Positions 1,088 through 13,497 of a stretch of DNA of 14,147 nt are shown piece after piece. Made by a program: the position numbers and the translations under genes. The stretch covers positions 1 to 14,147 of the forward strand of contig CBDDTI010000488.1 of the NCBI GenBank assembly GCA_965233585.1, written 5' to 3'. The stretch is from a bacterium. Its GTDB lineage: Bacteria; SAR324; NAC60-12. The notes under the pieces were generated by a model. That model was not told the DNA's origin. It worked only from the letters and a program-made list of their open reading frames with translations, and did not search any database. The stretch's first letter is position 1, and each line of letters begins with the position of its first letter.

Positions 1088-1645
1088 AATAAGTTGACAA
1101 AACACAATTCAAACATAGCTCCCACACAATTACCTGTTTAGTAAAACATACATTTGGATAATTTATACCTTTTTTTCGTAAATAACAAATAATAATACGC
1201 TGTTTTTATTTTGTTTTATCTATTTATTTCTTTTTTCACAGTTAATGTCAGAAAAATAATTATTTTTATTATACATATATTCTAACTCCAATATGATATT
1301 TATCAGGTGTGTTTTCCTTAAAACCCATATTAATCGAACTTGATATTTCTTCATAAATTTGGTGATTTTCAACTTGTTCATAAATAAGTCCGTTCGTCCA
1401 TCACTTTGTCAGTCTATTTATTCAGTTAATCTATGTCAACCTCTGCTTTATTTTGTACCATATGTCATATTTCAATGGATAACAAGGAATTATTTTTATT
1501 AATTTTATGAAATAATTGTTTTAAGCTATGAGGGAAATTATTTTGTAAGTTTTTTTATATCTTCAACTGTATGCCGATGTACAATTTATCCTTTTTATCA
1601 AAGAAAACCCGATGAAAATGCGACTTTCCAATATAGCAAAATTTT

Positions 1646-3016: not shown

Positions 3017-3485
<469 letters not shown>

Positions 3486-3521
3486 ACAACATCTGACCAT
3501 TGACCAAGTCAAACAAACAAC

Positions 3522-3560
3522 GGCCCTTTTCAGGGCCACACATATTTTTCGAAAAGAAGC
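3522..3560 (+). terminator. H4 stem-loop (3522-3537) plus downstream element (3546-3560)
   Basis: GGCCCT-TTTC-AGGGCC followed by ACA, then TTTTCGAAAAGAAGC. Confidence 0.95.
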
Positions 3561-4169
3561 GTTAAAGCTGTTTACAAATCAATAAAACACAAGATCACTT
3601 TCCCCTGCCCATGTAAAGAGATATATTTCCTTTTTATTTATAACAGTATCACTATAAGGTCTAATATATACATAATAAAATTGAAATACAACATAGGTGT
3701 ACAGTTTAACAAGGACAGATAATTTAACAATGAAATGCTTTTTAAATAATATTTAATATCTCTGTATATTTTATAAAACAATAACATTACATCTGATTTG
3801 AATATATCCATTATAAAGATGTTATACAATATACAACAAAATAATTTTCAAATCTTGGTACAGTTGTTCTGTAACATTTCCAATATATTCTAATGTAAAA
3901 TACAAAAGAACTGATGACATATTCACTCATCTTACATATAATCAGAATATGTGAATATGTATATATGTGAATATCATTCCACAATGTACTTTCGTTAATT
4001 CTATGTCAGGAAGACAATGCAAGTGTAAATGTAATATATACATGTGTGTTGCGTGTAAATATATATGTAGGTACAGTAACAATACATTATAAGTTTGGAC
4101 ATTCAAACATGTACATTATTCATGTGGTGTGGGACCCCTGTTTGTGTTTTGATTTAGTTCAGCTTAATC

Positions 4170-4208
4170 ACTTCTTTTCGAAAAGTTTGGATGGCCCTGA
4201 AAAGGGCC
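4170..4208 (-). terminator. H2B stem-loop (4193-4208) plus downstream element (4170-4184)
   Basis: The minus strand reads GGCCCT-TTTC-AGGGCC ATCCAAAC TTTTCGAAAAGAAGT. Confidence 0.95.
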
Positions 4209-4235
4209 GTTTGTTTGTTAGCAGAGTAAACAAGT

Positions 4236-4607
4236 TTACTTGCTGCTGGTGTACTTGGTCACAGCCTTGGTTCCCTCAGAGACGGCGTGCTTGGCCAACT
4301 CTCCTGGAAGGAGAAGTCGGACAGCAGTCTGGATCTCTCTGGAGGTGATGGTGGACCTCTTGTTGTAGTGAGCCAGTCTGGAAGCCTCTGCAGCGATTCT
4401 CTCGAAGATATCGTTGACGAAGCTGTTCATGATGCTCATGGCCTTGCTGGAGACACCAGTGTCGGGGTGCACCTGTTTCAAGACTTTGTAGATGTAGATG
4501 GCGTAGGATTCCCTCCTCCTCCTCTTTCTCTTCTTGTCCCCAGTACGCTGGGCCTTTGCCTTGGAGGCGGCCTTCTTGGATCCTTTGCTGCTTACTTTGG
4601 GTGGCAT
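4236..4607 (-). CDS. H2B: Histone H2B (123 aa), copy 1; true start is the ATG at 4607, not the ORF-track start at 5030
   Basis: [13 protein letters not shown]...[19 protein letters not shown]...[14 protein letters not shown] box sits at 4662-4668 on the minus strand, upstream of this ATG. Confidence 0.98.
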
Positions 4608-4917
4608 GTTGATGCTTTGCGTGCTAAACGAAAAGTGATGTCGTCGCAGTAAATTTTTCGCTTTTATACCATCGATCTGAGCGTGGCATTGAAACGATCT
4701 TTTAGTAATTAAGCGCGGACGTTTAAGTGAGCATACATCGAGCGGCGTCGTTACAAACTTAACCCGAGGGTGTTTATAAGAGCCGTGCGTTGATTGGTTG
4801 TTGTGTTTGTCTGGACTGGGTTTGTGTCGTGTGAATGCCAGCGGTGGGTATATAAAGGTTGACGGTGTGATTTTTGGTTTCATTCTGATTTGATATCGCA
4901 TCAAGAGAATAAGCAAC
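4608..4917. promoter_or_regulatory. Bidirectional H2B/H2A promoter (310 bp; also at 11133-11442)
   Basis: Outward-facing TATA boxes: TATAAAA on the minus strand (4662-4668) and TATATAAA on the plus strand (4849-4856). Also ATTGG/CCAAT at 4793-4797 and initiator-like TCATTC at 4880-4885. Confidence 0.85.
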
Positions 4918-5295
4918 ATGTCAGGCCGAGGAAAAGGAGGAAAGACGAAGGGAAAGGCAAAGAGCCGATCATCCCGTGCCGGGCTACAGTTCCCCGTCGG
5001 ACGTATCCACCGTCTGTTGAGAAAGGGCAACTATGCTGAGCGAGTAGGAGCTGGTGCACCAGTGTACTTGGCTGCTGTTCTCGAATACTTAGCCGCTGAG
5101 GTTCTGGAATTGGCAGGCAACGCAGCCAGAGACAACAAGAAGGGCAGAATCATCCCAAGACACTTGCAGTTGGCCATCAGGAACGACGAGGAATTGAACA
5201 AACTCCTCTCCGGTGTGACCATCGCCCAGGGTGGTGTCCTCCCCAACATCCAGGCTGTTCTTCTGCCAAAGAAATCCGCCAAGGCCTCCAAGTAA
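4918..5295 (+). CDS. H2A: Histone H2A (125 aa), copy 1
   Basis: [43 protein letters not shown]...[15 protein letters not shown]. No C-terminal SQ motif, so not H2A.X. Confidence 0.99.
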
Positions 5296-5325
5296 ACTGT
5301 ATTCCTCAATACAGCACAACAAAAC

Positions 5326-5364
5326 GGCCGTTTTAACGGCCACCAAAATTTTTCGAAAAGAAGC
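5326..5364 (+). terminator. H2A stem-loop (5326-5341) plus downstream element (5350-5364)
   Basis: GGCCGT-TTTA-ACGGCC followed by ACCAA, then TTTTCGAAAAGAAGC. Confidence 0.92.
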
Positions 5365-6967
5365 ATTTGAGTTGAAAACACTGATATCAAACCCAAATAT
5401 AGATCCCACACATCCCCTGATCACACAAACAATACTTCAATAAATGTAAATACATAGGAAATTAGTGCACTTTGAAATAAAATATTAGAAATGATAATGA
5501 ATAGAACAATTTATTGTAGAACACAGATAGATTTATCGCACATAGATCCCACATTATCATTGAATCTTACATATTTGTACCCCATGAAATGTACAGTGAA
5601 AAAGTAATGAAAGAAATCGTTTTATGGCAACGCATATTTATGTTTAATTTCACCGTATAACTAAGAATATTCATGTAAAGTATAAGTGTAATTATAACGC
5701 ATGAGTATAAAATTTTATATATGCATGATATGTGTAATCTCCTAAATAAACCTTCAGAAAATAGTGTTACTGAAATCTGCATTAGTCACAGTGAAAACAT
5801 GGCGTCAAAACGACGTTACGATAACGTCATTGTCATGACGTCATAAAGAACGCTACCAAGACAAAACCATGCAACTCCTTACAAGACTTGGTGCTACGTG
5901 AAAGACTTCTGCATGGTAGGTGTGAATTTTCTGTTTAACATGAAAAATATTTCAAATTGAATTGAATGTCCATTATTTCTTATAAATGAAACAGCCACTG
6001 TGATTCATCGATACACGAAAAAAGACACATATTCTGTAAATTAAGTGTAATTAGAAGTCTTATGGCGTGTTTGATGAGTGTCAAAAAATGAATATAATTA
6101 AGTTCAATGGAAAGCTGACAGATTTGCCGTGTTGAGTAGTAACGAAAAAAAAAATCAAAATTGTTTTCATATTTATTTGTTATAAATTTTTGTCCATGAA
6201 CATGAATATCAACAACATATTTATAACCTTCTGTGAGAAATAAACTGAATTTTCCATAAATGTTATTGAGCGTTTGTCATATATGAACAATATGGTCTGG
6301 TATTGAATTGAACAACGCAGTGTTTAGTAACATGTCAAACACTTCACTCAATATTATTTGTCGGATTGGCATATTTTACGTAAATCATTGTTATTTCTTG
6401 ATATTTCAAATAATGTGTACGACTTATTTCAGAATAAATATTCAATGTTATCACAAAATCGTGTACGTCAGATGTGACCCGGTATTCATTTTCAAACGTA
6501 TTTTAATTCACTTTTTAGGATTGAAGAACACGGAAATAGGCTTAAAGGGGAAATATAGTATTTCTGCTAATAGTAGCACGCAAAAGATCTCAAGAAATAT
6601 CTACAATAATAGCATTTTATTACGAAAACGGCACTTGAAATACCTCGTTTTCCTTCAAATATCATAGTTTTATTGATATAAAGTCAGTTCTATGTAAGTA
6701 ATTGACGATTATTTTTATATAATATTGAAGCAGATGTTTTCTTCTATCATTGTATAACTATTGTGTCCAGTAAATTTTGTGAAATAAGAAGAAAACGAGG
6801 ATTGAACATGCCTATCTTAAAACAACGACCAACTTCATGTACTCGACAAATAATGGTGCTTACAACGACGTCCGCGACTGTACAAACAAAAACACCGCTT
6901 TGCCCCCAGTCGCTTTATTCTCTTATAGCAGTTTAAGCTGAGAAGACGTTCATCTCTACATCTGAAA

Positions 6968-7612: not shown

Positions 7613-8375
7613 AATAAGTTGACAAAACACAATTCAAACATAGCTCCCACACAATTACCTGTTTAGTAAAACATACATTTGGATAATTTATACCTTTTTT
7701 TCGTAAATAACAAATAATAATACGCTGTTTTTATTTTGTTTTATCTATTTATTTCTTTTTTCACAGTTAATGTCAGAAAAATAATTATTTTTATTATACA
7801 TATATTCTAACTCCAATATGATATTTATCAGGTGTGTTTTCCTTAAAACCCATATTAATCGAACTTGATATTTCTTCATAAATTTGGTGATTTTCAACTT
7901 GTTCATAAATAAGTCCGTTCGTCCATCACTTTGTCAGTCTATTTATTCAGTTAATCTATGTCAACCTCTGCTTTATTTTGTACCATATGTCATATTTCAA
8001 TGGATAACAAGGAATTATTTTTATTAATTTTATGAAATAATTGTTTTAAGCTATGAGGGAAATTATTTTGTAAGTTTTTTTATATCTTCAACTGTATGCC
8101 GATGTACAATTTATCCTTTTTATCAAAGAAAACCCGATGAAAATGCGACTTTCCAATATAGCAAAATTTTGTGCAAATTTGCACTTCCAAAAGCATTGAA
8201 ACGATGTTTTACTTCAGCCAATCATTGTACAGGGATTTGACCAATCATATGCGTTGATACAAAGCCGGTGGCCAATTATCGCCGTCGATACAGTAACGGC
8301 GGTGTTTACAAACAAAGGCAATAAATAGAACGCTATGTGACCTTACACTTCATTCATTCGACTCTAAATCGTTGA

Positions 8376-8864: not shown

Positions 8865-9659
8865 TATATTGTTGAAAACTACCAATACGAAACATAGGTC
8901 CAACACACCATCAAAACTCAAATATAGGTCCAATCAAACACAACACAAGAAAAATAAACCCCTATCTACATACTGTGTAACAATGTCTATGTAAGCTATA
9001 TATTTCATATATTAATTACGCATGTATATAAATGCGCATATACGAGAAATATTGTGACAATTGTCTTTTTTACTGACAAAATACACCCTACATATATTTG
9101 AAATTATAAATATCGCGATTTTTCTCCCACAACAGTTCAATCTTGTATATATGTCCAGAAAGTAGACCATTTTAACGCAGTTTATACACAAATTTCATCC
9201 TGTAATAATATAATTTCACTTGGACAAATTGCAATCAAAATGGAAATTTAATATATTTCTCTTTTGCACATTTATTACATCAAATTACACATTTCTTAAA
9301 AACAAATACTGACTAAATTCCTTGTATAATTCTTTTATTCAGATTATAGATAAATAAGGAGATCACTTTTCGCTGCTATAACTTTCTGCAAAAATATTTT
9401 AAAATCACATAAAATTGACAGTCATAAAATATAATGTCATTTATTCATCAATTAATTTATTGATCACTCGTGAACAATGTTAATTGCTGTTAATTGCTTT
9501 TAATTACTCCAAGAGGATGTTTGTCCATGTTCAAATACCACAGCCAATCACAAACGATCTTACATTTATCACACCTATATGTCGAGCCGAACGATTCAAA
9601 ATACTGTGTTTACTAGCGCGTCGTCAATTATCTTATAAAAGGCAATTTCAGCTCGCTAA

Positions 9660-10085: not shown

Positions 10086-10694
10086 GTTAAAGCTGTTTAC
10101 AAATCAATAAAACACAAGATCACTTTCCCCTGCCCATGTAAAGAGATATATTTCCTTTTTATTTATAACAGTATCACTATAAGGTCTAATATATACATAA
10201 TAAAATTGAAATACAACATAGGTGTACAGTTTAACAAGGACAGATAATTTAACAATGAAATGCTTTTTAAATAATATTTAATATCTCTGTATATTTTATA
10301 AAACAATAACATTACATCTGATTTGAATATATCCATTATAAAGATGTTATACAATATACAACAAAATAATTTTCAAATCTTGGTACAGTTGTTCTGTAAC
10401 ATTTCCAATATATTCTAATGTAAAATACAAAAGAACTGATGACATATTCACTCATCTTACATATAATCAGAATATGTGAATATGTATATATGTGAATATC
10501 ATTCCACAATGTACTTTCGTTAATTCTATGTCAGGAAGACAATGCAAGTGTAAATGTAATATATACATGTGTGTTGCGTGTAAATATATATGTAGGTACA
10601 GTAACAATACATTATAAGTTTGGACATTCAAACATGTACATTATTCATGTGGTGTGGGACCCCTGTTTGTGTTTTGATTTAGTTCAGCTTAATC

Positions 10695-11889: not shown

Positions 11890-13497
11890 ATTTGAGTTGA
11901 AAACACTGATATCAAACCCAAATATAGATCCCACACATCCCCTGATCACACAAACAATACTTCAATAAATGTAAATACATAGGAAATTAGTGCACTTTAC
12001 AAAGAAATAAAATATTAGAAATGATAATGAATAGAACAATTTATTGTAGAACACAGATAGATTTATCGCACATAGATCCCACATTATCATTGAATCTTAC
12101 ATATTTGTACCCCATGAAATGTACAGTGAAAAAGTAATGAAAGAAATCGTTTTATGGCAACGCATATTTATGTTTAATTTCACCGTATAACTAAGAATAT
12201 TCATGTAAAGTATAAGTGTAATTATAACGCATGAGTATAAAATTTTATATATGCATGATATGTGTAATCTCCTAAATAAACCTTCAGAAAATAGTGTTAC
12301 TGAAATCTGCATTAGTCACAGTGAAAACATGGCGTCAAAACGACGTTACGATAACGTCATTGTCATGACGTCATAAAGAACGCTACCAAGACAAAACCAT
12401 GCAACTCCTTACAAGACTTGGTGCTACGTGAAAGACTTCTGCATGGTAGGTGTGAATTTTCTGTTTAACATGAAAAATATTTCAAATTGAATTGAATGTC
12501 CATTATTTCTTATAAATGAAACAGCCACTGTGATTCATCGATACACGAAAAAAGACACATATTCTGTAAATTAAGTGTAATTAGAAGTCTTATGGCGTGT
12601 TTGATGAGTGTCAAAAAATGAATATAATTAAGTTCAATGGAAAGCTGACAGATTTGCCGTGTTGAGTAGTAACGAAAAAAAAAATCAAAATTGTTTTCAT
12701 ATTTATTTGTTATAAATTTTTGTCCATGAACATGAATATCAACAACATATTTATAACCTTCTGTGAGAAATAAACTGAATTTTCCATAAATGTTATTGAG
12801 CGTTTGTCATATATGAACAATATGGTCTGGTATTGAATTGAACAACGCAGTGTTTAGTAACATGTCAAACACTTCACTCAATATTATTTGTCGGATTGGC
12901 ATATTTTACGTAAATCATTGTTATTTCTTGATATTTCAAATAATGTGTACGACTTATTTCAGAATAAATATTCAATGTTATCACAAAATCGTGTACGTCA
13001 GATGTGACCCGGTATTCATTTTCAAACGTATTTTAATTCACTTTTTAGGATTGAAGAACACGGAAATAGGCTTAAAGGGGAAATATAGTATTTCTGCTAA
13101 TAGTAGCACGCAAAAGATCTCAAGAAATATCTACAATAATAGCATTTTATTACGAAAACGGCACTTGAAATACCTCGTTTTCCTTCAAATATCATAGTTT
13201 TATTGATATAAAGTCAGTTCTATGTAAGTAATTGACGATTATTTTTATATAATATTGAAGCAGATGTTTTCTTCTATCATTGTATAACTATTGTGTCCAG
13301 TAAATTTTGTGAAATAAGAAGAAAACGAGGATTGAACATGCCTATCTTAAAACAACGACCAACTTCATGTACTCGACAAATAATGGTGCTTACAACGACG
13401 TCCGCGACTGTACAAACAAAAACACCGCTTTGCCCCCAGTCGCTTTATTCTCTTATAGCAGTTTAAGCTGAGAAGACGTTCATCTCTACATCTGAAA

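Follow-up and report, generated by a model that had tools for sequence, protein, structure and literature searches.

A third conserved block downstream of both the stem-loop and U7 site of histone genes in a mollusc-like tandem array

The histone array and its host

The window, as we call the whole 14,147-base stretch of DNA that was analysed, consists of 2.17 tandem copies of a 6525-bp histone quintet unit. The genes for H1 (443-1015), H3 (1860-2270), H4 (3174-3485) and H2A (4918-5295) are encoded on the plus strand, and that for H2B (4236-4607) lies on the minus strand. The contig belongs to a 12-Mb, 747-contig assembly that is filed as a bacterium, and the histone array is DNA of an animal (mollusc-like) host that was carried along in the bacterial bin. 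The closest named relatives of the window H1 are those of molluscs, namely Mytilus, oysters and Aplysia, and the 90% cluster of the window H2B includes bivalve entries. When H4 was searched for in 88 genomes of the bin's phylum, the only one of the 88 that matched was the window's own assembly.

The same assembly contains a second, slightly different histone array, with a unit of 6585 bp, on another contig (C7), and this variant was found, with identical differences, in one of the four DNA runs whose contigs were examined. Further histone genes in the assembly are limited to an H3 variant on contig C731, which has no stem-loop.

Stem-loop, downstream element and a candidate long U7 site

A 16-nt stem-loop of the Rfam family RF00032 is located shortly after the stop codon in all 11 gene copies of the window (five genes in two units, plus the H1 of the third unit), each above the gathering threshold, with scores of 34.2 to 41.4 bits. 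In the first unit, the core of the stem-loop occupies 1049-1064 in H1 (family match 1044-1088, 34.2 bits), 2300-2315 in H3 (match 2295-2340), 3522-3537 in H4 (match 3517-3562, 41.4 bits) and 5326-5341 in H2A (match 5321-5366), all on the plus strand, and 4193-4208 on the minus strand in H2B (match 4169-4213). The purine-rich downstream element (HDE) follows, so that the metazoan histone 3′ processing signal is present in both of its parts. Its core, GAAAAGAAG[CT], is found at +14 to +24 in the five genes (distances with a plus sign are counted from the end of the stem-loop) and holds the complement of UCUUU, which is described as the conserved box of U7 (PMC5054213). In H1, this putative U7 site reads GAAAAGAAGC at 1078-1087 (+14 to +23) and is preceded by a T-run; the corresponding cores lie at 2330-2339 in H3, 3551-3560 in H4 and 5355-5364 in H2A on the plus strand, and at 4170-4179 on the minus strand in H2B, where the core is GAAAAGAAGT.

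A sequence-only reading of this DNA had also reported a short GYTG block after each downstream element, and this block is real. It takes the form [AT]GYTG[AT], lies 4-5 nt past the HDE core (an offset of 5-6 from the HDE end) in all five genes, and was recovered by a width-6 motif search that made no use of position, with a score that 3 of 200 shuffles reached. This second block (block 2) is AGTTGA in H1 (1092-1097, plus strand, a de novo width-6 site 4 nt past the HDE core), TGTTGA in H3 (2345-2350, plus), AGCTGT in H4 (3566-3571, plus), AGCTGA in H2B (4159-4164, minus) and AGTTGA in H2A (5370-5375, plus). Together, the HDE and block 2 make up a module of about 30 nt that is common to the flanks, and to this extent the earlier description of these flanks as otherwise non-homologous does not hold, although it does for the spacers around the third block discussed below, whose identity is at background level.

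Another set of histone genes comes from the genome behind locus L018 (G088), which is a further bacterial bin with a different mollusc-like host. Its proteins are 95% (H2A), 91% (H2B) and 100% (H3 and H4) identical to those of the window, with 67% identity in the globular part of H1, and the genome contains at least seven distinct histone stem-loops. There, the HDE is TTTTTCAAAAAGAATCT, followed by [AG]ATTGTTG at the same offset as block 2 in the window. Since the two hosts conserve the HDE and block 2 as a single stretch of about 30 nt, block 2 is most likely, and in the simplest reading, the 3′ portion of a long U7 site rather than a separate element, and the U7 site of these animals would probably be about 30 nt long and conserved between hosts. 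We found no U7 gene in the 12-Mb assembly, in which the best match to the Rfam family RF00066 scored 18.9 bits against a cut-off of 34 and pattern searches returned no candidate. A U7 site of about 30 nt that is kept between hosts would be an aid to finding the U7 gene of these animals.

A third block at a near-fixed distance

Behind the stem-loop and the HDE there is a third short block, at a fixed distance and in the direction of the gene. The complete 3′ module reads, in order, stem-loop, ACC(C)A, T-run, GAAAAGAAG[CT], 4-5 unconserved letters, [AT]GYTG[AT], a spacer of 13-19 nt, and a 17-mer, AAAYAKRGNTCCMACAC, which we call block 3. The 17-mer begins 47-54 nt after the stem-loop of H1, H3, H2B and H2A, always in the sense orientation, and its start lies 23-30 nt past the HDE core in these four of the five genes. 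In H1 it is AAACATAGCTCCCACAC at 1111-1127 on the plus strand (+47 from the stem-loop end at 1064), with a TCCC kernel at 1120-1123; in H3 it is AAACATAGGTCCAACAC at 2365-2381 on the plus strand (+50), with the kernel variant TCCA at 2374-2377; in H2B it is AAACAGGGGTCCCACAC at 4127-4143 on the minus strand (+50), with TCCC at 4131-4134; and in H2A it is AAATATAGATCCCACAC at 5395-5411 on the plus strand (+54), with TCCC at 5404-5407. H4 carries a degenerate form at 3586-3604 on the plus strand, made up of AACACAAGATCAC at 3586-3598 followed by TCCC at 3601-3604 (+64), and has neither the full 17-mer nor a PWM match. Counted over the five genes, a TCC[CA] kernel occurs at +56 to +64 in all of them: TCCC starts at +56 in H1, +59 in H2B, +63 in H2A and +64 in H4 (four of the five flanks), and TCCA at +59 in H3. 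In the second unit, the block lies at 7636-7652 (H1), 8890-8906 (H3) and 11920-11936 (H2A) on the plus strand and at 10652-10668 (H2B) on the minus strand. The coordinates and letters given in the sequence-only reading for the four motifs and for the degenerate H4 form proved exact, as did the claims that the motif is shared across the cluster at a near-fixed distance and that it follows the direction of transcription, flipping with H2B; every copy is in the sense of its upstream gene.

The motif clearly exceeds what is expected by chance. The degenerate 17-mer matches eight times in the window, four per unit, and in none of 200 dinucleotide-preserving shuffles. With up to 3 mismatches to AAAYATAGNTCCCACAC allowed, there are 10 matches against 0.24 expected, again all in the sense of the upstream gene. 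A blind motif search over +36 to +150 of the five flanks, with one site per sequence and no positional prior, returned the H1, H3, H2B and H2A sites that had been claimed and an unrelated site in H4, with z values of 5.1, 5.5 and 5.9 at widths 10, 12 and 17, and none of 100 shuffles reached the score at any of these widths.

The block is also largely confined to the histone arrays. Across the 12-Mb assembly there are 17 occurrences of the exact pattern, eight on this contig, eight on C7 and one elsewhere, and read backwards it does not occur in the assembly at all. A relaxed core, A[TG][AG]GNTCC[CA]A[CT], matches six times per unit, each time on the sense strand and no more than about 210 nt from a stem-loop, and the remaining roughly 12 Mb contain 178 copies; the reversed core, used as a control, has no copy in the two arrays and 249 elsewhere. 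Beyond the main four, the relaxed core adds a second, weaker copy in H3, AAATATAGGTCCAATCA at 2395-2411 on the plus strand, 30 nt past the first (core match at 2399), and a distal extra copy in H2A, GCACATAGATCCCACAT at 5538-5554 on the plus strand, at about +200, which recurs in the second unit at 12068-12084 on the same strand. A possible further H4 flank type with a motif-like stretch was also seen, in only three contigs and with 30 letters visible.

Block 3 shows no sign of RNA structure: RNAalifold on the four flanks gave -0.47 kcal/mol and three pairs, none of them in block 3, with no compensatory change. In Rfam at E <= 1, the only matches were to RF00032, and block 3 matched no family. 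We know of no convincing resemblance of block 3 to known transcription-factor sites.

These observations bear on the possibility that block 3 is a DNA-level protein site that serves the chromatin or transcription of the cluster, for instance as a 3′ enhancer, a boundary or insulator, or a nucleation site of the histone locus body. Its specificity for the histone arrays within the 12-Mb assembly, its presence as one copy per gene and its failure to form RNA structure would all suit such a role, and the fast change of the flanking letters between hosts, described below, might fit a fast-evolving zinc-finger reader. An enhancer or boundary, however, needs neither a fixed distance nor a fixed orientation, both of which are seen here, and the window promoters carry no copy of block 3 on either strand. 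We regard this role as distinctly unlikely.

A different role would be that of an accessory to a cryptic polyadenylation site, in a fail-safe or alternative 3′-end pathway for read-through transcripts. Such a pathway has precedent, as poly(A) signals that are conserved or cryptic are described shortly past the HDE for Drosophila and C. elegans histone genes (PMC1924863, PMC4896052), and three of the window genes do carry an AATAAA downstream, at +113 in H3, at +98 in H2A and at +44 in H4, a place that in the other genes is taken by the 5′ half of block 3. Block 3 itself contains neither AATAAA nor ATTAAA, so we rejected it as a poly(A) signal; no hexamer of this kind lies within 400 nt in H1 or H2B, and in the genes that have one, its distance to block 3 varies. 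An accessory role in polyadenylation is thus improbable in our judgement.

Conservation between flanks and between array variants

Among the four flanks that bear the motif, mean pairwise identity is 0.95 in the HDE, 0.50 in the link that follows, 0.83 in block 2, 0.56 in the spacer and 0.83 in block 3, and it is 0.52 and 0.56 in the next two 20-nt pieces beyond. With an identity of 0.83 between spacers at a background of 52-56%, block 3 is an island of conservation. The spacer that adjoins it is no more alike between genes than unrelated sequence of like composition, and MAFFT aligns block 3 on its own.

The comparison of this contig with the C7 array, which differ by 185 events (4.1% in ordinary spacer), provides a second view of conservation. 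From the end of the stem-loop to the end of the motif, a stretch that includes the HDE, there are four events in 326 nt (p = 0.003), and from the HDE to the end of the motif there are three in 177 nt, against 23 in 400 nt in the 100 nt behind the motif (Fisher p = 0.03). In the H1 flank, the arrays first differ 3 nt past the motif and then show ten events within 60 nt. The 17-mers themselves differ by two events in 68 nt, both at variable H2B positions, which at this low divergence is unremarkable (p = 0.47), and the four 10-nt cores differ by none in 40 nt, which is no different from background. The divergence between the arrays is too low for this comparison to decide whether the 17-mer itself is under constraint.

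Comparison with other hosts

The sequence-only reading had made the presence of the motif in the histone 3′ flanks of relatives a measure of its validity, and the outcome is divided: the TCCC kernel is kept in four of the seven G088 flanks, but the full 17-mer is absent from that host, and a third animal (G089, a soil contaminant) has neither. A PWM of the window core run over the seven G088 flanks gave a summed score at chance (p = 0.46), and the reverse test was also negative. It exceeded shuffles in two of the seven, those of H3 (p = 0.03) and H1 (p = 0.026); the H3 site alone falls in the zone of the third block, and the H1 site lies at +147. A blind search did return a third block of G088's own, ...AGCT(T)(T)GTCCC[AT][AG]T, at +55 to +80 in four of the five named flanks, with marginal support, as 1, 4, 1 and 20 of 100 shuffles reach its score at widths 6, 8, 10 and 12. 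The best 19-mer pair across species, block 3 of the window H2B against that of the G088 H3, agrees at 16 of 19 positions, which 3 of 40 shuffles equal.

What the two hosts have in common is the place of the kernel. In G088, TCCC starts at +57, +61, +65 and +66 in four of the seven flanks; it is found at +81 in one further flank, and two have none. We framed the kernel and C-patch tests after both flank sets had been seen, so they are exploratory, and the flanks of one host are not independent: with this in mind, TCCC is the top of the 256 four-letter words at +54 to +68 in both flank sets together, and its presence in four of the seven G088 flanks is reached by none of 5000 whole-flank shuffles and by 0.14% of shuffles confined to +41 to +90. 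Other 15-nt windows between +36 and +114 hold TCCC in at most one G088 flank. In the same exploratory setting, the patch around the kernel is C-rich and G-poor in both hosts, with a 5- to 7-fold enrichment of CCC at +41 to +90: nine in 250 nt against eight in the 1550 nt beyond in the window (p = 1.5e-4), and 13 in 300 nt against 13 in 1415 nt in G088 (p = 1.3e-4). In G089, the HDEs are ordinary and variable, there is no third block, and TCCC is found there in none of the five flanks.

Searches for further relatives added little. An alignment of H1 against species genomes matched 18 stretches, of which two were confirmed. A metagenome scan for the stem-loop plus HDE pattern gave a single match, inside a bacterial gene, which we set aside as chance, and a viral scan for the same pattern gave none. 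We also set aside 19 H4 loci on viral contigs, presumably viral or protist, as all are at most 97% identical to animal H4 (the 97% match covering only 30 residues).

The main rival to a functional reading takes block 3 for a neutral relic left by concerted evolution, in which gene conversion between flanks, seeded in the nearly identical stem-loop and HDE module, made the flanks alike. Paralogous flanks that are similar within a species, with letters little kept between species, are the classic signature of concerted evolution, and flank-to-flank exchange does occur, since the H2A and H2B flanks of G088 have a longer stretch in common (ATCAATTGAT ... ATACAGCT), which lies between their HDE and third block. 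The decay of the 17-mer in H4 would also be expected of a relic, and the extra copies in H3 and H2A keep the variable letter of their own gene, as local duplications would. However, conversion that starts from the HDE anchor should leave the spacer at least as alike as block 3, and the observed identities are 0.56 and 0.83. The state of the genes likewise runs against it: H1 has the most divergent stem-loop and HDE and a perfect block 3, while H4 has a perfect stem-loop and HDE and no 17-mer. Moreover, the position of the TCCC kernel is kept in the second host, even though the surrounding spacers differ. On balance, we consider a neutral relic rather unlikely, while giving it serious weight; if block 3 is one, it would still offer a clean case of non-homologous genes in one repeat unit evolving in concert.

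The change of letters at a kept position also recalls the co-evolution of HDE and U7, and one could imagine a small guide RNA as the pairing partner of block 3, be it an additional stretch of U7 or a different RNA; a linear and sense-specific element would suit such pairing. The spacer to the HDE and block 2, however, varies from 13 to 19 nt, and U7 is reported to be only 57-70 nt long (PMC5054213), with a 5′ arm that the HDE and block 2 would already occupy. We therefore think such pairing very improbable.

A possible signal for the end of histone gene transcription

Our preferred reading, which we hold tentatively and rate at somewhat less than an even chance, is that block 3 is a lineage-specific signal just past the U7 site that acts in a transcription-coupled manner, either in pausing or termination or in the binding of a protein or loading of a factor. 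The block is linear, sense-specific and specific to histone genes, its distance is tied to the processing signals, and the place of its kernel is kept in two hosts while the surrounding letters change, all of which fits a signal that is used during transcription of the 3′ end. Block 3 would then be a functional cis-element of the histone 3′ module, acting just after the processing signals have been made. Several facts count against a functional role: H4 retains no 17-mer, just TCCC at +64, the kernel of H3 is TCCA, the letters around the kernel are not kept in G088, and G089 has no such block.

Between 15 and 20 nt of nascent RNA are hidden within the polymerase. On a transcript in which the stem-loop that binds SLBP, the cleavage site, the long U7 site (T-run, GAAAAGAAGC, 4-5 nt and AGYTGA), the 13-19-nt spacer and block 3 would follow each other in that order, a Pol II whose active site stands on the kernel (+56 to +66) would have RNA outside it up to about +40 to +50, so that the stem-loop and the whole U7 site would just have emerged. 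At this point, block 3, whose kernel across species would be TCCC in a C-rich, G-poor patch, may slow or stop Pol II, or may load a factor, either on the DNA or on the C-patch of the nascent RNA, with the effect that cleavage and termination would take place before the polymerase enters the next gene. Candidate readers would include a poly(C) binder of the KH type, acting on RNA or single-stranded DNA, and a DNA-bound roadblock; how the block acts on Pol II, and through which factor, is what we infer.

Poly(C)-binding proteins are reportedly linked to transcription termination. KH-domain proteins of this kind (hnRNP K and PCBP1-4) are described as binding C-rich RNA as well as single- and double-stranded DNA (PMC9701828), and the kernel of block 3, a C-triplet (TCCC) in a C-rich, G-poor stretch of the sense strand, resembles their sites; a KH-type poly(C) binder could be the reader of block 3.

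The nearest element within the module itself is the HDE, which block 3 resembles in being linear, on the sense strand and at a fixed distance from the stem-loop. The HDE is common to all five genes, and it is purine-rich, whereas block 3 is C/A-rich and set off by an unconserved spacer of variable length.

Among known systems, the closest is the replication-dependent histone genes of Drosophila, where Pol II is described as pausing just 3′ of the HDE (PMC4896052, PMC9133132, describing Adamson & Price 2003). The role proposed for the pause in these accounts is to keep Pol II in place during the assembly of SLBP and the U7 snRNP, thus coupling cleavage to termination. A role in pausing or termination, as suggested in the sequence-only reading, therefore has a forerunner in flies. 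It is similar to block 3 in its place, as the pause lies tens of nucleotides past the U7 site on every histone gene and block 3 lies just downstream of the U7 site, with the 17-mer in four of the five genes. It differs in that the pause is defined by the behaviour of the polymerase, and block 3 by a shared motif. The distance is not matched either: in vitro arrest is given as 32-35 nt past the transcript end (PMC9133132), and, with cleavage presumed 5 nt after the stem-loop, our motif extends from about +42 to +59 from the presumed cleavage site.

That a third element should lie past histone genes is not unheard of, given the precedent of C. elegans, whose histone genes are described as having a three-part 3′ module made up of a hairpin, an AATCC element and a conserved AATAAA (PMC1924863). 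There, too, a lineage-specific third element comes directly after the second in all core histone genes, and its authors suggested that it serves to terminate transcription and is not a site of processing. In contrast to block 3, the third element of C. elegans is a canonical poly(A) signal.

Our search of the full-text literature, whose reach does not extend to the older mussel cluster papers of the 1990s-2000s, brought up no account of a third conserved element behind the histone genes of molluscs. Nor is a shared motif of this kind mentioned in the portions available of the Lucina histone paper, of a 2026 preprint on how histone 3′ processing evolved and of a 2026 review of histone gene organisation. 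A pause past the HDE is already known in flies, as polymerase behaviour only, and a shared sequence motif of this kind in mollusc-like hosts is apparently undescribed.

There is no settled account of how Pol II comes to a halt past histone genes. In human cells, Pol II occupancy is reported to fall sharply after the core histone genes (PMC3372504), and the downstream histone RNA is said to be attacked by CPSF73 and Xrn2, the latter being loaded onto the downstream product although it "does not effectively terminate transcription" (PMC9744234). Since Xrn2 does not effectively terminate at histone genes, a further termination signal is plausible. A stronger proposal, which we find doubtful, is that block 3 is a dedicated, sequence-defined terminator or pause, in which a positioned TCCC C-patch some 35-40 nt past the U7 site would be read, on nascent RNA or DNA, by a specific factor that stops Pol II, with the downstream RNA passing to degradation and the surrounding letters co-evolving with the factor in each lineage. 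If this were true, block 3 would be the first sequence-defined cis-element for the ending of histone gene transcription, the step that Xrn2 leaves unexplained, and a motif with a kernel shared by two hosts would give this step a handle that can be mutated.

Histone 3′ ends in the window

In all five histone genes of the window, the U7-site region has an uncommonly long and uniform layout, in which a T-run is followed by GAAAAGAAGC, 4–5 nt and AGYTGA (1071–1097, 2321–2350, 3545–3571, 5348–5375 and, on the minus strand, 4159–4186). At the U7 site, four of the five genes carry a perfect palindrome, TTTTCGAAAA, and the same layout, with slightly changed letters, is also present in the second host, whose DNA lies in another bacterial bin (G088). 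Among the five genes, only H4 has a canonical AATAAA 44 nt after the end of the stem-loop (3581–3586), and this hexamer occupies the place taken in the other four by the 5′ half of the conserved 17-mer that lies 3′ of the AGYTGA block. CCAATCA-type boxes were seen by eye to be repeated in the promoters of H3, H4 and H2A/H2B (1690–1760, 3018–3030 and 4785–4800).

Host DNA in bacterial assemblies

Although the assembly is filed as a bacterium, the whole window is mollusc-like animal DNA, and many other contigs of this 12-Mb bin look eukaryotic. The bin holds the histone array in two variants, on the window's contig and on contig C7, with units of 6525 and 6585 bp, respectively, and 185 differences per unit. 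A divergent H3 variant on its contig C731 (7590–7997) is 82% identical and has no stem-loop. About 230 nt past its stop codon lies AAATATAGTCCTATCAAAA, which is similar to the second H3 copy of the 17-mer, a likeness that may be due to chance.

In a third animal's histone genes (bin G089), a cluster of H4, H2B, H2A, H3 and partial H1 fills the final ~6.5 kb of contig C27 (156 kb), adjoining high-GC bacterial genes; this join probably reflects a chimeric assembly. Microsatellites, (GAAT)n and (TCAG)n among them, begin within ~60–90 nt of the histone 3′ ends of this cluster.

Among the G088 loci, L051 (contig C407, about 607–651) shows two tandem histone stem-loops, spaced 29 nt, before a single U7-site purine core (HDE). 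At L045, the 3′ flanks of the divergent H2A and H2B genes have ATCAATTGAT ... ATACAGCT in common in the stretch that separates the HDE from the third block, and this common run is a sign that different genes have exchanged sequence in their 3′ flanks.
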